Source of the DNA: Clostridiaceae bacterium | GTDB taxonomy: Bacteria; Bacillota; Clostridia; UBA1212; DUPL01 | Assembly: GCA_012522035.1 (NCBI GenBank) | Contig: JAAYLF010000063.1 | Span: 1 to 43,559, forward strand | Direction of reading: 5' to 3' | DNA length: 43,559 nt | Part shown: in pieces, positions 3,614-43,559 of the stretch | Numbering within the stretch: the first letter of the stretch is position 1 | Layout: each line of letters begins with the position of its first letter | Notes under the pieces: model-generated | Seen by the model: only the letters and a program-made list of their open reading frames with translations | What the model was told of the DNA's origin: nothing | Database searches by the model: none | Made by a program: the position numbers and the translations under genes

Positions 3614-4816
3614 TTAATTGATAGGTGCAGTGCCCACCTTGACCGCATGCACAACGAAACGTCCGTCCGTGTATGTGTACCTGTGACAGGTGGAAAGAGT
3701 CAGTATGTCGTCTCTTGAAGATAGAACAATATCGGTTTTTACCACGGATTTCTTCTGCAGCCCTCTGGCAAATTCAAGAAAAGCCTCAGGGGTTGGAAAA
3801 TATGTTTGGATGTAGTAATCATCCGTGGTGGTTTCATAAGCAGAAAATATTTTCCACACAGTAACACCTTCTTTTGTATAGGTGTAAAGGTACTGGTGCT
3901 TGAAAAATATTTCCTCTTTCTGATAATACTTGAGCTTGCCAAACATGTTTCCGTTTCTCATGTTGTGCCCATATATTATATTATTACTTCCAATCTTATT
4001 GTCCTTGCCTGAACTTGATATCCTTTCAGGCCTGTTTCTGTAGTCAAGGAACAGCGAACCTGATGTTCTATACTCCTTGTCTATGTCTCTCTTCAGATAA
4101 AACTCGTTGTCATTGGCTTGAAGGACATAGTAATCTATCTCTGCCCCTTCTCCATAAAGCCACATTACAAAATCACTGTTTCTTGCTTCATTCTCCAGCA
4201 AGGACTGCAAAGTGGCCACCTGTGGATATGTAATTCTTGGGGGAGTTGCCATTGGATACTCGGGAATCTCCCTGTCAGGCGTAACTTCTATCAAGCTGCC
4301 CTTCCCTATATTATACTGCTCCCTTATCCTGACCATATGTTCATAGTCCGCCACATAACCGTAGATCTGCTCCCCAATCATGCCAAGGGCAAAAAGCATG
4401 ACAGCAAGAGCAACGGCTCTGCCAAATTTGTAGAACATGAGATTCAGTTTCCTTCTCTCCCTTTCTTTGGCAGATAGTTTCTTTTTCTTTTTCCTGGGAG
4501 TGATTACCTTGACAGAAATGTTTTCTTTGAACTCCTCAATGCTGCCCTTGTCCGGCACCAAAAACTGAGAAGGAAAATCAAATACCAGGTTTTGTCCTTC
4601 CTTCAGCCTGAACACCTTTGATTTTCGAATCGTGGAGTTATTCTCAAGCTGCCTGTTCAAAACTTCCTCATCTTTCAGGACATCACGAACCTCTGTTTCG
4701 ACCTCATCCGCCAGCTTGTCAAAATATGATTCTCCCTCGCGTATCTTCTCTATCTTCGCCATTTTATTTATATCATCCAATGTCTTTTCAACATCTTCAT
4801 TATTAATATCGCTCAT
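3614..4816 (-). CDS. Class B sortase with a long N-terminal extension
   Basis: C-terminal half carries IIYGHNMRNGNMFGKL and the catalytic TLSTC motif typical of SrtB. One TM helix (VALAVMLFALGMIGEQIYGYV). I prefer ATG 4816 (MSDINNED, SD GGGGAG 7 nt upstream) over the track TTG at 4867. Confidence 0.8.
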   Translation of the reverse strand: MSDINNEDVEKTLDDINKMAKIEKIREGESYFDKLADEVETEVRDVLKDEEVLNRQLENNSTIRKSKVFRLKEGQNLVFDFPSQFLVPDKGSIEEFKENISVKVITPRKKKKKLSAKERERRKLNLMFYKFGRAVALAVMLFALGMIGEQIYGYVADYEHMVRIREQYNIGKGSLIEVTPDREIPEYPMATPPRITYPQVATLQSLLENEARNSDFVMWLYGEGAEIDYYVLQANDNEFYLKRDIDKEYRTSGSLFLDYRNRPERISSSGKDNKIGSNNIIYGHNMRNGNMFGKLKYYQKEEIFFKHQYLYTYTKEGVTVWKIFSAYETTTDDYYIQTYFPTPEAFLEFARGLQKKSVVKTDIVLSSRDDILTLSTCHRYTYTDGRFVVHAVKVGTAPIN

Positions 4817-4953
4817 GAGTATCTCCCCAATTAAGATTCGATATATATAATATACAAAACGGGGCAAAAAAGCAAACAGGATAAATTTACCAACACCCCT
4901 TCATGCCAGTACAAAATATCTGAATAACATGTTACACTGAGATTTAGCAAAAA

Positions 4954-29886: not shown

Positions 29887-30177
29887 TTATAATCCAAGCT
29901 TTAAAGCCATTATTTCTTTAATTTCCAAATCTATTTCCTTTTCTATTCTCGCTATGTCTTTTGCAATATCTTCAATGGTTTCCTCAACCTTAATCTTTTT
30001 GAAATCTTTTGTATTGGTCCTGGCTTGCTTGCCGGCCTTTGCAAAACTTTCATTTCTCCTAACCCCAGAGGCATTCTTTTTGTTTTCGTTCATGCCCTGC
30101 TCGGTATCCTTATCCATTCTTTTTCCATTATTAGGATTCCTTCGGTTTTTGTTACCCCTGTTAATATTCTCCGACAT
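29887..30177 (-). CDS. Small basic hypothetical protein (Asn/Lys/Arg-rich N-terminus, C-terminal amphipathic helix)
   Basis: 96 aa, ATG with GGAGG upstream. It overlaps the upstream gene by 17 nt and ends 18 nt before the malic enzyme start. No family recognised. Confidence 0.5.
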   Translation of the reverse strand: MSENINRGNKNRRNPNNGKRMDKDTEQGMNENKKNASGVRRNESFAKAGKQARTNTKDFKKIKVEETIEDIAKDIARIEKEIDLEIKEIMALKLGL

Positions 30178-30769
30178 CCATCTGCCTCCATTTCCTTATG
30201 GTAATTATTTCATTGTCTTCCTTGTTGATATATACATTAAATCCAGCACTTTCTTCTTTAATGTATTTTCCCTCGTCCACCAGTATGTCATAATATCTTT
30301 CCAGTGCCAAATCATCAAAAAACGGAAACTCTTCCCTTGCTTTATACACTACCCTGTTCATGTACAAATTCTCAGAACCATCGTACAAAAGAGGTTCGTC
30401 CCGCCTCCTGTCAAAATCCTCAATCTGATGTGGCAGCAAGGTGCATTGTATCAGGCATTCGGGTTTTCTGTAAGTACCTAGCCTGTACTCACGGATGGGA
30501 ACAAGACTTGATTCATAAAGAGCCATATTCTCCTCATCATACAGCGCTCCTTCCGCTATGTAGTAAGTATCCTCCGGCGCTTTGATTTTCACAGCCTTGT
30601 AGGTATCGTCATAAAACTTTGAGCAGTCGGCAGGATGCAGATACGCAAGAAGAAATCTTTTTTGAAATCCGTTTACCGTAATCTCCCTTTCGAAATACTG
30701 GTTCAGTTTTATGCCGCAATCCATTATTTCATCAGCGCTGTCGATTTTTGTAAAATAGAATACCTTCAA
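30161..30769 (-). CDS. Hypothetical cytoplasmic protein
   Basis: The track ORF runs 30161-30787. The in-frame TTG at 30769 has the better SD (GGAGGAG 8 nt upstream). No TM segment or recognisable motif. Confidence 0.5.
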   Translation of the reverse strand: MKVFYFTKIDSADEIMDCGIKLNQYFEREITVNGFQKRFLLAYLHPADCSKFYDDTYKAVKIKAPEDTYYIAEGALYDEENMALYESSLVPIREYRLGTYRKPECLIQCTLLPHQIEDFDRRRDEPLLYDGSENLYMNRVVYKAREEFPFFDDLALERYYDILVDEGKYIKEESAGFNVYINKEDNEIITIRKWRQMDVGEY

Positions 30770-30804
30770 TGTATGAACTCCTCCCATGCCGATCTCAATT
30801 AGAG

Positions 30805-30833
30805 ATTATAGCAAAAACAAGGAGTTATTGCAA
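30805..30833 (-). promoter_or_regulatory. Strong sigma-A-type promoter (TTGCAA-17-TGC-TATAAT)
   Basis: Minus strand TTGCAA 30833-30828, 17-nt spacer ending in TGC (extended -10), perfect TATAAT 30810-30805. It sits between the last Tad-like gene and the 30769 gene. Confidence 0.5.
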
Positions 30834-30841
30834 ATAAAACG

Positions 30842-31333
30842 TTAAATATAAAGACTGAAACCCGAAACGCTAAAAAAACTTTCGTGCTCTGATACAAGGA
30901 ATACGTAAATGCCCTCCCCCAGCTCGTTAAAAAAAGAATCCTCCACCCCATTATATGCAAATTCTATCCTCGCTGCCTTATCAATCATCAAATTCAACAC
31001 CCGGTTTACACAAGAAGCCTTTTCCTCATCTTCGATATTAACATTTATCATTTTGCTTTCCGACATGCCAACTACAACATCTTCGTACACAAAAATCATA
31101 ACCTTGAGGTTTTGAGAATTAGGAAAATTCTTAACATTTTCAAAGCATTTTTCCCTATCAATTACCAATTTTCCATCATCCATGGACATGCAGTTTACTA
31201 TCTCTTTACCTAACAGATTCAAATTTCTTTTTTCTTCCCGCTTTAAGAATCCTTCATGCATTGTATCAACGCCCGTTAATACAAGCACCAAAAACATCCA
31301 TATTGCAACAACCCATGCAGCCAGCTGATGCAT
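30842..31333 (-). CDS. Small N-terminally anchored protein, last gene of the Tad-like operon
   Basis: 163 aa. MHQLAAWVVAIWMFLVLVLTGV is a single N-terminal TM followed by a soluble domain. SD GGTGG. Confidence 0.55.
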   Translation of the reverse strand: MHQLAAWVVAIWMFLVLVLTGVDTMHEGFLKREEKRNLNLLGKEIVNCMSMDDGKLVIDREKCFENVKNFPNSQNLKVMIFVYEDVVVGMSESKMINVNIEDEEKASCVNRVLNLMIDKAARIEFAYNGVEDSFFNELGEGIYVFLVSEHESFFSVSGFSLYI

Positions 31334-31341
31334 ACAACCAC

Positions 31342-31752
31342 CTACACAATAATCGAAACCTTCACACCTGCAGTCCTTAATACCACGCCGGTGATCTTTT
31401 CAAAAATGGAAGGCTCCAGGCTGTACGCCACAATCGTAAGCCTGTCGCCTGTTGCAAGCTCCCTGTTCAATATGTCTTCGAGTTTGTAATATGTATCTGT
31501 CCGACCGGCCATGACGTTGACTTCCAGCTTCAGTTCAACACAAAAATCTCCCATTTTCGACAGCTCTTCGTTCAGATACGTCCAAACCTCGTCCGACATT
31601 ACACCTTTGGTGCTGACTGTTTCAGCCACGTCAAACAAAAGGTCGTTGGTCCTTTCATTGACACCCGCATATATGCAAAATGATACGCCCGACAATATCA
31701 AATACACAAATACGAATATCGATAGAAAGTTTGCAATAACCTTGCCGGCCAT
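31342..31752 (-). CDS. Small N-terminally anchored protein (possible minor pilin / TadE-like role)
   Basis: 136 aa. MAGKVIANFLSIFVFVYLILSGVSF is the N-terminal TM. SD GGAGG 7 nt upstream. Confidence 0.55.
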   Translation of the reverse strand: MAGKVIANFLSIFVFVYLILSGVSFCIYAGVNERTNDLLFDVAETVSTKGVMSDEVWTYLNEELSKMGDFCVELKLEVNVMAGRTDTYYKLEDILNRELATGDRLTIVAYSLEPSIFEKITGVVLRTAGVKVSIIV

Positions 31753-31777
31753 CCAGACACCTCCCTAAGACAGTTTC

Positions 31778-32140
31778 CTACGCTATTGCCTGTGATTCAA
31801 TCACAAACAATATTTCTTTCAATGAACCATCTTCCTTGTAGGTCTTGGTCATCCTGTACAGAGCGGTATCACTGACCTTTTCAATGTCAGCCATGGTTGC
31901 TTCCTGCTCTCTGTCGTCAATATATACCTTTATTCCAAGCAATGCCGCATTTTGAATATAATACTTTACCGTATTCTTTGACACCAGAGAACTGTCATTA
32001 ATCATCATGTTTAACCTTGTCTGATCCGCGCTGACAATGTCTGCGGTATCTCTAAAACCGCTCATCTGTCCAATAACAGCGTAACTTATCAAACCTAGAG
32101 TAAGAACAATAATAACTATGGAAGCAATAGCTTTCTCCAT
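31778..32140 (-). CDS. Pilin-like small protein, MEK-type N-terminus (paralogue of 32154-32564)
   Basis: ATG 32140 (SD AAGGGG) gives MEKAIASIVIIVLTLGLISYAVIGQ followed by a ~95-aa soluble domain. Confidence 0.6.
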   Translation of the reverse strand: MEKAIASIVIIVLTLGLISYAVIGQMSGFRDTADIVSADQTRLNMMINDSSLVSKNTVKYYIQNAALLGIKVYIDDREQEATMADIEKVSDTALYRMTKTYKEDGSLKEILFVIESQAIA

Positions 32141-32153
32141 CAATAATCCCCTT

Positions 32154-32564
32154 TCATTTTGATAGATCAATCATGGTTACCTCGACACGCACCACTTTCC
32201 CGTCGTGTCCGGTTTGCTTGTTCAACTTGAACATTGCTCTTGAGGACAGCGACTCAATATCTTTTGCTATCAAGCGCTTTGCCTCTTTGTTTATCGCCGA
32301 ATCCTTGTTGGGTAATGCGAAATAATTTGCCATGTTTGATGCGTATACAAACTCATACCCCAGTTTGTCCATGTTGTTGAAGTATCGTAGAACTTCTTCT
32401 TTTCCGATTATGCTTCCATCCTTTACTCTCATGTTTAGTGCGGATGCGTCACTGCCAATGTTGTCTGAAATGTCCTTGTACTGACTGTCAACCTGGAACA
32501 AGGCATATCCAATCAGGCCAACAGTAATTACCAGAATAACACATAATGCAATTACCTTTTCCAA
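32154..32564 (-). CDS. Pilin-like small protein, MEK-type N-terminus (candidate major subunit)
   Basis: TTG 32564 with SD GGAGGG gives (M)EKVIALCVILVITVGLIGYALFQ. It is preceded by the only sizeable (106-nt) gap in the operon. Confidence 0.6.
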   Translation of the reverse strand: MEKVIALCVILVITVGLIGYALFQVDSQYKDISDNIGSDASALNMRVKDGSIIGKEEVLRYFNNMDKLGYEFVYASNMANYFALPNKDSAINKEAKRLIAKDIESLSSRAMFKLNKQTGHDGKVVRVEVTMIDLSK

Positions 32565-32670
32565 CTAGTACATCCCTCCATAATGTTTTTATCAGGTTTG
32601 GAACATACTTGCCAAGGTCAAAGCTCCCCCCAATAGCTTTGCCTTATGGCAAGCATCTCCATAAACCTTT

Positions 32671-33063
32671 TCATTCCACGGATGTAAACACAATTTCGAC
32701 AATACCAGCACTCTCAGAGCGCGTTATTCTGACTTCAAACACACTCTGCGGGTCTATTGAATAAGAGTCCGGATCGTATGCCTCCCCCTCATAAACACAG
32801 GATCCGTTTACCCTATCCCAAACCCTGATAACAGCACCTCCTTTTAATTCATAATACCGGATTGTCGATATTACATCCGCGCCCAGACATCTTGAGCCAT
32901 CCCGTAGATTGGGCAGCATCACCTCCTTTATCTTTTCACTGTAGTCGGCCTTTTCAGCCATGGTATTTAGAAGGTCGCTGTTCTGCCTGTATAAAGGTAT
33001 GATGAATATCAACAAAGACAAAACCAGCGCACCTATTACCACCTCTGCCACAACCTTGTCCAT
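32671..33063 (-). CDS. Pilin-like small protein, MDK-type N-terminus
   Basis: ATG 33063, 4 nt after the upstream stop, gives MDKVVAEVVIGALVLSLLIFIIPLY followed by a soluble domain. The track start 33129 would overlap the upstream gene by 62 nt. Confidence 0.55.
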   Translation of the reverse strand: MDKVVAEVVIGALVLSLLIFIIPLYRQNSDLLNTMAEKADYSEKIKEVMLPNLRDGSRCLGADVISTIRYYELKGGAVIRVWDRVNGSCVYEGEAYDPDSYSIDPQSVFEVRITRSESAGIVEIVFTSVE

Positions 33064-33067
33064 GAAA

Positions 33068-33715
33068 TCACCATCCCAAACCACTGAATTCAAGCATTTT
33101 GATCCAGGGTGCCAACAGATATACAACAAGCACCGTTAAGGCAACAAACAATCCCAAAACTCCTACCACATTGATTAGCTCCACTTTTTTCTTAACTTTC
33201 CTTATGCTTTCCCTTTTCTCCCTTGCAAAATCATCCTTAATGGTTTTAACTGACAAATCAAAATCATAGTAGCATGCCATGTCAAGTTTTTCGTAAAAAA
33301 GCTTTACTTCCAAATCCTTTGCACCAGCTTTGAGTTCCTGGTAGAACATTTCAGTGTCAGTACTGCTTTTCTGGTGAGCTTCATATATCGCCACAAGATC
33401 CTTTTTAAAATGCTCCGACCTTGCTATCAGGGATTTCATGAGTTTTCCAAAGTCCACTGGTTTTACACTTCCGCATATAACAAACAGCTTTTTGAGAAAG
33501 TACAGTTCTTTTGAAAGTTTCGTCTTTAGGTAAACTTTTTTTAAATGCCTGTAGACCTCGGGTAAAAAGTAGCAAACGCAGCTTGCAATAATGATTCTGT
33601 ATATGTAAAGCAATTTATTAATTCTGCCATCCAACATCAAATCAGTAAAAAACATGGATAAACCAAATATGAGACATATTCCCATACAAACAACATTCAC
33701 TTTTATACGTTTCAT
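33068..33715 (-). CDS. TadC-like (T2SS-F-domain-like) inner-membrane platform protein
   Basis: 215 aa. N-terminal TM helices, a central cytoplasmic helical region and a C-terminal TM pair. This is the TadB/C topology, and the gene sits after the TadB-like gene. Confidence 0.55.
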   Translation of the reverse strand: MKRIKVNVVCMGICLIFGLSMFFTDLMLDGRINKLLYIYRIIIASCVCYFLPEVYRHLKKVYLKTKLSKELYFLKKLFVICGSVKPVDFGKLMKSLIARSEHFKKDLVAIYEAHQKSSTDTEMFYQELKAGAKDLEVKLFYEKLDMACYYDFDLSVKTIKDDFAREKRESIRKVKKKVELINVVGVLGLFVALTVLVVYLLAPWIKMLEFSGLGW

Positions 33716-41191: not shown

Positions 41192-43559
41192 TTACCTTAT
41201 TACCACTTTGCCCTTCTCGTCCATGTACAAAAGTTTTCTGGCAGTAAGATATATGGGTATTCCGTTAAGAATGACACCTTCTTTCTTGAGCCAGTTCCTC
41301 ACTTCCACAAGAGACTTGAACGGCTTCTGTTCGTGCTGCAGCTTGATAATCCACCTTACTATCTCCTTGTAATCATCTGCATAAGGATTATCGGATTTTA
41401 CAAAGATACAGTTAGGCAAATTGTAATTCCTGGTAGGTATTTCCACAATGTTGACGTACTGCATGTAGTTTTGCACTATCGATATCAGCAAAAACGGAGT
41501 CCATTCAACACCCAAATCAGGAAATGCGGAAAAATCCTCCATGCCCATCATCGCCATATACTTCTTTTCCTCAAGTATATTCAACACTTCCAGCTTGATT
41601 GCAGTTAGCTTGTCCTCTGTCAAACCCAGTTTTGAAACATGGACAAGCTTGTTTACATCACTTCTTAAAAACTCATCAGACAAACAACTTATAAGTTTTG
41701 CCTTCTTCATAATCTTTATCTGATTATCCTCACAAAACTTGAACAGTTCGTTTATCTCTATTTCCTTCTTATCCCTCAAAAACTTTTTCACTATTGTGAA
41801 ATTGCATGCATCATCCGTGCCTTTTGCACCTATGTTTGGTCGTGAAAATTCATACTCATCCTCAAACATATACTTAAGTATACCATAAAGTTTTGAATAA
41901 TTGGTAATACTATTTCGTTTTATAAAATCCGCAAAAGCATTTTCTTTCCTTATGACACCGTAAACCTTCCTGCAGGATACCGGAATGCCTTTAATGAGAT
42001 CGTCCAGCTTCTCACGAAGATTTATATAATCCTCCTGAGTTATATTCAGCCTGTCTGCATGCATGTATGTGTTGTAGTCTATGGTTATGATGTCCTTGCA
42101 TCTTGCCATCGTCTGGGCAATCATGGAATCGGAAGTTCCCATGAAGTAGCTTTTTAGCTCTTTCTTGGTCACCTCTCCATTTTTCCTGATAAACTCCCTC
42201 AGCTCATAAGCAAAATCAATACCCCTGTCCTTCGATATCAGATCCTTGGTAAAGTAATACTTGTTTTTGAGTTTGTATTTCAAAAACCCTTGCAGGAAAT
42301 ACCTGTTGTCAATATTCGACCTTGCAAGAAGCTCATCCTTGAAAGCCTCAAAGACTTCAAGATATGAAAGTGCAACCCTGTCACTTTGATCAATATATTC
42401 CTCTATTCTCTGCACAAGGTCGTCAGGTATGGAAATGAAGTCAGGGTGGATGTAAGTACTCCTGTCACACAACACAGTTATTTCCACAATGCGCGCCTCC
42501 ACAGCCTTGTTGGACTGCGGCAGCTTTATATTCCCAAACATATCCGTAATTCTTCTTCTAAATATCTCCATTTCCTCTTCATCGGAAACCTTGATACCTA
42601 GAGGATAATATTTTTTCATGACAACCTCGTACTTTTCACCAAGACTCATTTGGTTGTTGCAAAACACCGTATCAAAGCATGTGTAATTCTTCTCTATGAC
42701 TTTTTCAACCAAAAGCGCAGGTATCGCAAGCTCATTTGAAGTCTTTTCCACCACTTCGTACAGCTCGTCACTCTTGAAGTATGGATTCGATTCCGCCATG
42801 TGTTTTTCAATGTTGGCATAGCTGAAATCGCCAGTCATTGAAAACAGGCCATACTTCTTATTGTAGCTCTGATGTGGTTTTAATGTGCTTTTGAGCAGGT
42901 ATATGAATATATCAACAATACTGTCATCAACCATATTGGTTATGACATTCTCAAGAGCAATGTCGGTATTGTCCGAAATAGCGGCAAAAAGGTTAAGAAA
43001 CCTCTTTCTTTTGTCGCATTGTACAAAGCCTTTGCACATGATATCTTCCAGCTGTCTTACCCTCTCCCTGGTGATACCACTGCCCCTGCCAATATCCTCC
43101 AGGGGTCTGCCCTGGGATCGGCTCTGCAGTATGTACATACATCTTTCAGTACCCGCAATCTTTTCCAAGGCATCCACAACCATGTCGTTGACATCGATAC
43201 CCAGATACCTGACAAAGCATTTTACAACAAGCATCTCTTCCTCGTTGCACTTTAATTCCTTTATGACCTTTTCAATATCGGACACGTACTCCAGCTCGCC
43301 AAAATACCTGTTTAGAACTTCCAGAGAATGAATGTTGTCAGTATACGCAATAATATACGGCTTAAGTTTTCTCTGTTTAACATGGTTGGAAATTGAGTCA
43401 AAATGTCTAGAAAGAAAATGGGTATCTCCCATGCCTTCATCATCCAAGAGTTTTTTGGAGTTCCTGTCTATGGCATCAACCTTTTCCCTTATATCCTTCA
43501 AACTACCTTTTCCGAGTCTGCTGATAGACAATAGAGCTTCATCAGGCATTTCCCTAATG
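41192..43559 (-). CDS. Large protein with RpoA-CTD-like helix-hairpin-helix and sigma-70 region-4-like HTH, remainder unknown, possibly 5'-partial
   Basis: At least 785 aa. N-terminal ALLSISRLGKGSLKDIREKV looks like the second half of an HhH. ILQSRSQGRPLEDIGRGSGITRERVRQLEDIMCKGF matches sigma-70 region 4.2. There is no in-frame stop between ATG 43549 and the window end, so the real start may lie outside. Confidence 0.6.
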   Translation of the reverse strand, partial: IREMPDEALLSISRLGKGSLKDIREKVDAIDRNSKKLLDDEGMGDTHFLSRHFDSISNHVKQRKLKPYIIAYTDNIHSLEVLNRYFGELEYVSDIEKVIKELKCNEEEMLVVKCFVRYLGIDVNDMVVDALEKIAGTERCMYILQSRSQGRPLEDIGRGSGITRERVRQLEDIMCKGFVQCDKRKRFLNLFAAISDNTDIALENVITNMVDDSIVDIFIYLLKSTLKPHQSYNKKYGLFSMTGDFSYANIEKHMAESNPYFKSDELYEVVEKTSNELAIPALLVEKVIEKNYTCFDTVFCNNQMSLGEKYEVVMKKYYPLGIKVSDEEEMEIFRRRITDMFGNIKLPQSNKAVEARIVEITVLCDRSTYIHPDFISIPDDLVQRIEEYIDQSDRVALSYLEVFEAFKDELLARSNIDNRYFLQGFLKYKLKNKYYFTKDLISKDRGIDFAYELREFIRKNGEVTKKELKSYFMGTSDSMIAQTMARCKDIITIDYNTYMHADRLNITQEDYINLREKLDDLIKGIPVSCRKVYGVIRKENAFADFIKRNSITNYSKLYGILKYMFEDEYEFSRPNIGAKGTDDACNFTIVKKFLRDKKEIEINELFKFCEDNQIKIMKKAKLISCLSDEFLRSDVNKLVHVSKLGLTEDKLTAIKLEVLNILEEKKYMAMMGMEDFSAFPDLGVEWTPFLLISIVQNYMQYVNIVEIPTRNYNLPNCIFVKSDNPYADDYKEIVRWIIKLQHEQKPFKSLVEVRNWLKKEGVILNGIPIYLTARKLLYMDEKGKVVIR

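Follow-up and report, generated by a model that had tools for sequence, protein, structure and literature searches.

We analysed a stretch of 43,559 nucleotides (hereafter, the window), which is contig JAAYLF010000063.1 of a Clostridiaceae bacterium (assembly GCA_012522035.1). Its minus strand carries a tightly packed operon, running from approximately 38580 to 30842, which encodes a Hanks-type Ser/Thr protein kinase, a CpaB/RcpC-like protein, a divergent CpaF/TadA-like secretion ATPase and two membrane proteins in TadB and TadC positions, and which is closed by five small genes, herein named S1 to S5 (Table 1). A preliminary description of the window had presented all five products as pilin-like proteins that lack a leader and need no conventional cleavage. 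The five open reading frames (ORFs), their strand, coordinates and N-termini are as described there, and public gene calls on the same contig (metagenome-assembled genome, MAG, GCA_023622725.1) place all five starts identically. The comparison with related loci presented below makes us highly confident that S1, S2 and S3 are leaderless descendants of leader-bearing pilin-like proteins; S4 and S5 turned out to be a different matter.

Table 1. Genes and elements of the operon, its surroundings and selected related loci (aa, amino acids; nt, nucleotides; a slash marks a putative leader junction).
Feature	Sequence	Position	Strand	Length	N-terminus	Remarks
S1	window	33063..32671	minus	130 aa	MDKVVAEVVIGALVL, MDKVVAEVVIG	leaderless pilin-like protein
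S2	window	32564..32154	minus	136 aa	(M)EKVIALCVILV	TTG start; leaderless pilin-like protein, lineage-specific duplicate of S3
S3	window	32140..31778	minus	120 aa	MEKAIASIVIIVL, MEKAIASIV; also given as MEKAIASIVIIVLTLGLISYAVIGQ	
S4	window	31752..31342	minus	136 aa	MAGKVIANFLSIF, MAGKVIANF (M-x-G-K)	one N-terminal membrane helix
S5	window	31333..30842	minus	163 aa	MHQLAAWVVAIW, MHQLAAWVV	operon's last gene; one N-terminal helix
RNA hairpin	window	32594..32668	minus			in the operon's only large intergenic gap (106 nt), between S1 and S2
Hanks-type Ser/Thr protein kinase	window	37009..38580	minus	523 aa (public gene call)		operon's first gene
CpaB/RcpC-like protein	window	36320..37003	minus	227 aa	MKKG/AFFTVAIYLASLALLAAL	one N-terminal membrane helix
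Divergent CpaF/TadA-like secretion ATPase	window	34671..36323	minus	550 aa		presumed assembly motor
Multi-pass membrane protein, TadB position	window	33719..34678	minus	319 aa		three hydrophobic regions
Membrane protein, TadC position	window	33068..33715	minus	215 aa		helices at both ends; in all loci
Terminator-like site	window	38729..38704				just upstream of kinase
Promoter-like site	window	38645..38617				just upstream of kinase
Promoter-like site	window	30834..30805				extended -10; after S5, ahead of next gene
Soluble protein	window	30161-30787	minus	208 aa		downstream of S5; no family match
Lys/Asn-rich protein	window	29887-30177	minus	96 aa		downstream of S5; no family match
N-acetylmuramoyl-L-alanine amidase	window	38792-39589	minus			Amidase_3, E 9e-49; N-terminal membrane helix
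Multi-pass membrane protein	window	40553-41131	minus	192 aa		upstream of amidase; no family match, not A24-like
Protein with marginal sigma-70 region 4 match	window	41192-43549	minus	785 aa		upstream of amidase; RNA_pol_A_CTD on public record
Sortase-domain protein	window	3614-4867	minus	417 aa		C-terminal sortase domain, E 4e-13; several hydrophobic segments
TadZ-like gene	L019	4859-5677				
TadZ-like gene	L020	4698-5531				
TadZ-like gene	L022	4729-5559				
TadZ-like gene	L023	5454-6296				AAA_31
TadZ-like gene	L025	2576-3133				
TadB-like and TadC-like fusion	L016	1639-3072		477 aa		
S1 orthologue	L020	9446-9880			MDFKNKKNERMWYA/VKEIIYD (TTG start) or MWYA/VKEIIYD	ambiguous N-terminus

As the preliminary description had it, each of the five proteins possesses one N-terminal helix, since a single hydrophobic stretch is found at residues ~1-27/32 (1-27/29 in S1-S3) and no other. 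None of them gave a meaningful match in Pfam, NCBIfam, PADLOC or PHROGs, and the alignments of S1, S3, S4 and S5 drew no match when the PDB was searched by sequence and by profile. The earlier statement that S1-S3 carry no class III leader also withstood closer inspection, the M-[D/E]-K N-terminus standing directly at the helix. The ATG of S1 lies 4 nucleotides past the stop codon of the TadC-like gene, and the TTG of S2 is immediately preceded by an in-frame TAG, with GGAGGG located 9 nucleotides upstream. Among the orthologues, nearly every S1 and S3 start has a Shine-Dalgarno site ahead of it, and several are preceded by an in-frame stop at a distance of 0-8 codons. With these Shine-Dalgarno sites and nearby in-frame stops, the window-type genes leave no room for a hidden leader. 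We also considered that S1 and S3 might begin farther upstream and rejected this, since the added stretch would run into the preceding gene, include the Shine-Dalgarno site and have no GG, and in orthologues it is ended by stops. The apparent extensions of four database entries (P0007, P0009, P0017 and P0050) likewise proved to be over-long ORF calls of genes beginning with MEK. When every start codon of the window was scanned for a hidden Flp-like or other prepilin gene, no ORF with the G/XXXXEY motif came up.

Scanning genomes with the ATPase yielded 12 loci in Clostridia MAGs that go by names such as Oscillospiraceae, Candidatus Egerieisoma and Mageeibacillus; most of these loci have four small genes, namely S1, S3, S4 and S5. 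Word-based homologue searches retrieved 6 proteins with S2 and 10 with S3, and the S3 family, a small one, became visible only by an exhaustive profile search, which recovered 58 representatives among 1.84 billion proteins, the named members being all 'hypothetical protein'. Nine of these 58 carry a Lys/Arg-rich N-terminal leader, ending with Gly-Gly (Gly-Glu in one) and abutting the hydrophobic helix, as exemplified by MEKKGVVKLFKSKTGG/IGAIIAMVV and MFDNFAKKLFDLKVAVKFSKPALRSRKGG/ISTVIAVLV. A further search, seeded with the leader-bearing S3 relatives, added ~30 more with the consensus [KR]x[KS][SR]xGG/I[GP][AT]II, which brings leader-bearing members to ~40 in all. By its pattern (a basic leader, GG and then ~22 hydrophobic residues), the N-terminus of these relatives looks like a class III, or prepilin, signal, and the GG site would be the place where it is cleaved.

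The register between the two kinds of protein is precise. In hidden Markov model (HMM) coordinates, profile position 1, which is Met1 of the leaderless proteins, corresponds to the residue following GG in 31 of 41 leader-bearing members and is off by one in 9. Conversely, 57 S3-type proteins start exactly at profile position 1; 40 of them begin with MEK or MDK, and in 42, positions 2-3 combine an acidic with a basic residue (MEK, MDK, MKE, MKD). Where the leaderless forms have this charged cap, the leader-bearing ones have uncharged I-G-A or I-P-T. The same relationship is seen in the S1 family, for which 17 orthologues were aligned: leaders are present in L019 (..LLKSQRGG/ISGIIFEIIL) and L022 (..YLKTNKGG/ISNLVFEVVM), and Met1 of the window S1 aligns without gaps to the residue following GG in both, with Glu7 conserved. 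In the leader-bearing genes, it is the long start that has a Shine-Dalgarno site, and no start codon occurs in the 6 codons ahead of the helix, which makes the leader unavoidable there. The S1 and S3 families are themselves homologous (hhalign, 96.4%, E 1.4e-9 over 129 columns, GG site included). S2 belongs here as well: that it is a paralogue of S3, as proposed earlier, is borne out by BLASTP between both families (28-32% identity, E ~1e-14 to 1e-15) and by its match to the S3 profile (E 6e-16).

The S1 orthologue of L020 deserves a separate comment. Its N-terminus can be read in two ways (Table 1), and under either start there is Ala, not GG, at the aligned cut position, so that this protein may represent an intermediate state in leader loss.

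Leaders are distributed unevenly among the related loci. On a tree of their ATPases, the ten loci of the window clade form a monophyletic group in which neither S1 nor S3 has a leader. L023 is situated among leader-bearing loci, and its S1 and S3 are both leaderless; judging from this tree, L023 lost both leaders independently of the window clade. Such a placement, together with the leaderless window clade, implies that the S3 leader was lost at least twice. In three further loci (L016, L024 and L025), a leaderless S1 is encoded beside a leader-bearing S3, and from these mixed operons it follows that one machine accepts both kinds of subunit.

Which of the five proteins resemble pilins was judged from conservation, expressed as mean pairwise identity among ten orthologues. 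In S3, residues 1-30 showed 91% identity vs 47% in the rest of the protein, and in S1 60% vs 31%; the corresponding values were 46% vs 47% in S4 and 31% vs 33% in S5. A conserved helix followed by a variable head is the typical pattern of type IV pilins, and among S1, S3, S4 and S5 it is displayed by S1 and S3 only. In profile comparisons, S4 showed no similarity to S3 or S5, and S5 was unrelated to S3 (hhalign). S4 is found in all loci and S5 in nearly all, and neither of them carries a leader in any lineage. Thus, the earlier claim of pilin-like, leaderless proteins that need no conventional cleavage is supported for S1-S3, which have leader-bearing homologues and a Met1 falling right after GG; it is not supported for S4 and S5, where 'pilin-like' describes the topology. 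These two would rather be accessory membrane-anchored components than demonstrable pilins. S3 is likely the main subunit, being the best candidate for this role, and S1 a second conserved subunit, perhaps minor or priming.

The structure of S3 was also modelled. In the full AlphaFold2 (AF2) model (9-sequence alignment; predicted local distance difference test, pLDDT, 72), a helix at residues 2-48 is followed by a small four-stranded sheet with short helices, and the model of the head only (45 sequences, pLDDT 84) gave the same elements. The shape would agree with the 'lollipop' of pilins, but the evidence from structure is weak, as neither model has a significant Foldseek match (see below).

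The remaining genes of the operon place these proteins next to a putative secretion machine. The order of the kinase, the CpaB-like protein, the CpaF-like ATPase, the two membrane proteins and S1, S3, S4 and S5 is the same across 18 related loci, wherever the genes fall on recovered DNA, and the genes flanking the operon differ between loci. When the ATPase was compared with PDB sequences by phmmer, the CpaF pilus assembly ATPase was the best match (E 7.8e-07, residues 171-459, i.e., ~290 residues). The window ATPase matches the TadA family model of NCBIfam, TIGR03819, with E 8.5e-09, far under the cut-off (35 vs 373 bits), and has no Pfam T2SSE match at E <= 0.01; its L019 orthologue has a weak one. 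The CpaB/RcpC assignment of the protein encoded upstream would follow from BLASTP similarity (E 1e-18) to the L019 orthologue, whose RcpC (PF16976) match is faint, the window protein having no Pfam match of its own. By pattern alone, the N-terminus of this CpaB-like protein is closer to a short class III signal than that of any of S1-S5. The proteins in TadB and TadC positions are putative platform subunits, the role of the former being suggested by its position and topology; its C-terminal ~105 residues bear a weak likeness to those of the TadC-like protein (hhalign 52%, E 1.5e-4). In L016, the TadB-like and TadC-like proteins are fused.

The kinase (Pfam Pkinase, E 4.5e-29) is first in the operon wherever the upstream flank was recovered, namely in the window and in L007-L015, L017, L019, L020, L022, L023 and L025. 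A kinase is not a standard Tad component, and its presence suggests that assembly is controlled by phosphorylation. Its C-terminal half, ~240 residues long, is conserved and has no family assignment. In distant relatives, a separate ParA-like TadZ/CpaE gene lies between the CpaB-like gene and the ATPase (Table 1), and no such gene exists in the window clade. We considered the C-terminal half of the kinase as a fused TadZ, which is not supported: BLASTP showed no similarity to the TadZ-like proteins of L019-L025, and hhalign a weak one at most (19%).

Among the known systems closest to this operon is Tad/Flp (type IVc), as represented by Cpa of Caulobacter and Tad of Aggregatibacter. Common features are an ATPase whose best solved match is of CpaF/TadA type, followed by membrane proteins in TadB/TadC positions, a CpaB/RcpC-like single-pass protein encoded upstream, a ParA-like TadZ/CpaE in relatives (AAA_31 in L023) and several small single-pass subunits at the 3' end, comparable to flp-tadE-tadF. 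Unlike Tad/Flp, the operon has no short Flp pilin with G/XXXXEY, no TadE/TadF Pfam signature, no T2SSF match in the putative platform proteins, no TadV in the locus and, in the window clade, no separate TadZ; it starts with a Hanks kinase, and the window subunits are 120-136 residues long with a head domain and without a leader. With type IV pilins proper (PilA/ComGC type, archaeal pilins and archaellins), it shares, in the relatives, the basic leader ending in Gly and followed by ~22 hydrophobic residues, as well as the conserved N-terminal helix, the variable head, a model of 'lollipop' shape and a presumed assembly ATPase in the same operon. In contrast to these pilins, S1-S3 of the window have neither a leader nor Gly before the helix nor Glu5, and the head fold matches no solved pilin.

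A cluster reported in 2024 (Nat Commun) from TANB77, an uncultured gut order, is also similar as far as its description goes: it is Tad-like (CpaB, TadZ/CpaE, TadA/CpaF, TadB/C) and ends with seven small one-helix 'pilin-like' proteins, unassignable by homology (PMC11680825), the setting again being uncultured gut Clostridia. It differs in having no kinase, a fused TadC-TadB of 693 residues, an ATPase of 640 residues and other subunit sizes, including one of 621 residues. The L016 fusion mentioned above echoes its fused TadC-TadB. Leaders and prepilin peptidases are left undiscussed in that paper, where the word 'prepilin' occurs 0 times (PMC11680825).

How might subunits without a leader be handled by such a machine? 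A class III signal peptide and a dedicated peptidase are considered defining and universal for type IV filaments, with cutting preceding assembly; the leader holds the N-terminus in the cytoplasm in accordance with the positive-inside rule, and its removal is needed before extraction and polymerisation (PMC10191384, PMC4471445). In our reading, the leader-coding segment has been lost in the window lineage, and translation now begins at the residue equivalent to position +1 of the mature protein. In the scenario that we propose, S1-S3 would be inserted with the N-terminus inside and the head outside, the N-terminal helix acting as a signal-anchor. The M-[D/E]-K cap, with one positive and one negative charge, would orient the helix and yet stay near-neutral. 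Given such a near-neutral cap, the ATPase and the platform could pull the helix out of the membrane and build it into a filament or a short pseudopilus. The subunits would thus be made already 'mature', and the prepilin peptidase step would become unnecessary. As a whole, the model that sees S1-S3 as subunits of a type IV filament machine, a divergent Tad/CpaF-like one present in a small group of mostly uncultured Clostridia and assembling its subunits without cleavage, seems to us probable, if clearly less secure than the origin of these proteins from leader-bearing ancestors. Assembly of the leaderless forms without processing, the role of the cap and the cleavage of the relatives at GG are inferred.

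Several observations weigh against this interpretation. All of the sequences are metagenomic, and the system is known here from genes alone. The label 'class III leader' is a matter of pattern resemblance, and the Pfam prepilin (N_methyl) and class III signal models did not match the leader-bearing relatives. Searches of the PDB by Foldseek with the full and head S3 models gave no significant match and no pilin among the top ones; the best matches were NTF2/SnoaL-like folds with E 0.25-0.3, which we regard as noise. Glu at position +5 is absent, the acidic residue being Glu2 in S2 and S3 and Glu7 in S1. Glu5 of the mature pilin is common in bacteria and often missing in archaea, and the helix of the leader-bearing S3 relatives is free of acidic residues. 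Neither the TadB-like nor the TadC-like protein gave a meaningful match in Pfam, NCBIfam, PADLOC or PHROGs or any match to PDB entries, and a T2SSF domain was not detectable in them. The tree behind our evolutionary scenario is a midpoint-rooted neighbour-joining tree of 16 ATPases, and for S1 the pattern is ambiguous, as several leader losses and one gain are both possible.

The prepilin peptidase calls for the same caution. Peptidase_A24 was not found within 10 kb on either side of any locus with precomputed Pfam annotation, the leader-bearing ones included, and cleavage at GG is therefore unproven. In the window, there was none among the 18 ORFs outside the operon scanned with Pfam, unassigned multi-pass membrane proteins included, a set that left out four long ORFs between 13655 and 21674, none of which has at least three hydrophobic segments. 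Neither did 373 kb of DNA (the window and the loci) contain a multi-pass ORF with a GxGD-hydrophobic-K motif. In the preliminary description, the missing peptidase gene had been taken to fit the missing leader. By these scans, the locus never encodes a peptidase of its own. Since no A24 was found near the leader-bearing loci either, the absence at the window says little, and we consider this argument uninformative.

The most serious alternative is that S1-S3 are pilin-derived anchored parts of the machine (a stator, an alignment complex or a collar spanning the cell wall) and not subunits of a filament. It has a precedent in FlaF/FlaG (ArlF/ArlG) of the archaellum, which possess a pilin-like helix and a head, lack a class III signal peptide, are uncut and never polymerised, and form an S-layer-binding stator (PMC4425475). 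As pilin-like proteins of a filament machine without a class III signal, they are the nearest precedent for S1-S3. The differences are considerable: FlaF and FlaG are separate accessory families beside processed archaellins, while here the orthologue of a leader-bearing subunit is itself leaderless; the window operon keeps no gene for a processed subunit; there is no sequence similarity and no Pfam archaellin, FlaF or FlaG match; and the S3 head, a small alpha/beta domain in the models, is unlike an eight-stranded sandwich. The lack of a structural match to pilins would also suit anchored machine parts, as would S4 and S5, which never have leaders and show the ordinary conservation of anchors. 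In L016, L024 and L025 the leader is borne by S3 alone, so S1 at least could be non-polymerising there. Against this stand three features of S3. Its leaderless form is the positional orthologue of the sole leader-bearing protein in several relatives; without S3 as the filament subunit, the window operon has none, there being no Flp-like or other prepilin ORF in the window; and the near-invariant helix (91%) is the signature of a polymerisation interface. Overall, we find a purely structural role within the machine unlikely, though worth keeping in mind.

A second alternative supposes that the proteins are still processed, the leader having shrunk to a very short N-terminal piece that a prepilin peptidase or another protease would trim, for instance after Lys3-Ala4 in S3 or Gly3 in S4. 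The archaeal peptidase PibD accepts very short leaders. Positions 3-4 of the window S3 are indeed K-A, and in S4 Gly3 hardly varies and is followed by Lys/Arg; leaders have also been shortened experimentally, with processing kept in some systems (PMC4471445). However, most S3 orthologues have K-V at positions 3-4, not K-A or K-G, and S1 has K-[IV], while the position ahead of the cut is said to hold Gly or Ala without exception (PMC10191384). Moreover, the register puts Met1, not residue 4 or 5, at +1, and cutting S4 after Gly3 would leave an atypical Lys/Arg N-terminus. Such a residual processing appears rather improbable to us, more so than the role of anchored machine parts.

That S1-S3 are ordinary single-pass or Sec-secreted proteins, neighbours of an ATPase by chance, and that the 'leader' of the relatives is a cytoplasmic tail, would agree with the empty family and structure searches, yet it is hardly credible in view of the strict order kept with the ATPase and the membrane proteins across 18 loci with differing flanks, of GG abutting the helix in two paralogous families and of a hydrophobic stretch whose 22-29 residues are too many for a Sec signal peptide and whose conservation far exceeds that of the remaining protein.

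Returning to our preferred interpretation, in which S3 provides the main subunit of a filament, we would like to comment on S2 and on the gap preceding it. The preliminary description considered S2 an over-expressed major subunit. S2 is present in the window and in L007, a 91%-identical relative, and not in the other ten loci of the ATPase scan; its database relatives number six. Such a distribution points to S2 being a recent duplicate of S3. The gap between S1 and S2 exists only where S2 was inserted, and S2 has a TTG start, which does not support the earlier view; S2 is unlikely to be an over-expressed major subunit, and it is S3 that is universally retained and most conserved. The hairpin noticed in the gap at 32565-32670 does exist, but it is not a mere 7 bp: these constitute the core of a longer imperfect hairpin with a folding energy of -38.3 kcal/mol (z = -4.26), and 0 of 200 shuffled sequences fold as well. 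It is 92% conserved in L007, where the altered stem positions would allow G-U pairing. Lacking a run of U, it is not a classical terminator; it could serve in processing, in stabilisation or as an attenuator. The promoter proposed at 32615-32586 could not be upheld, with under 9 of 12 consensus matches and no promoter-like site at the scan threshold in the gap. Across the region, promoter-like sites are not more frequent than in shuffled sequence (25 vs 22.9 expected). One promoter-like site lies just upstream of the kinase, together with a terminator-like site, and another follows S5 (Table 1).

As regards the surroundings of the operon, the two genes downstream of S5 are conserved in no locus but L007 and, in part, L010, and they probably do not belong to the system. 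The amidase gene adjoins the operon on its upstream side, a position kept throughout the window clade (64-97% identity, L007-L017) and not in leader-bearing loci; the enzyme could be a cell-wall remodelling partner, or this may be plain synteny. Two more genes are located upstream of the amidase (Table 1). Some 26 kb away from the operon, the window encodes a protein with a sortase domain, which is unrelated to our finding and relevant to the display of surface proteins.

In the literature that was searched, nothing relevant turned up on natural leaderless type IV pilins or on assembly independent of a peptidase. The loci described here offer a natural comparison, in which orthologous subunits either bear a leader or start at the cut site, sometimes within one operon. 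Such a comparison bears on the purpose of the leader (orientation, timing or quality control) and on whether cutting is mechanistically required at all. There is also a practical side, as pilin-finding tools that demand a Gly-terminated leader will overlook systems of this kind, and for related Tad-like clusters in uncultured gut Clostridia a link to effects on host immunity has been reported (PMC11680825). It is tempting to go one step further and to suppose that the type IV filament machine of this clade operates entirely without a prepilin peptidase. Its subunits would be 'pre-matured', the cap taking over both jobs of the leader, namely orientation in the membrane and the subsequent removal of charge; the leader, lost at least twice for S3, would be dispensable for assembly in this family, and the system would be the first natural type IV filament independent of a peptidase. 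We offer this as a tentative possibility, to be held with some doubt. It predicts that a minimal system could be rebuilt in another host without a peptidase. For the Tad-like machine of the window, whose S1-S3 genes start exactly where the cut would fall, the enzyme that cuts leaders may be unnecessary.

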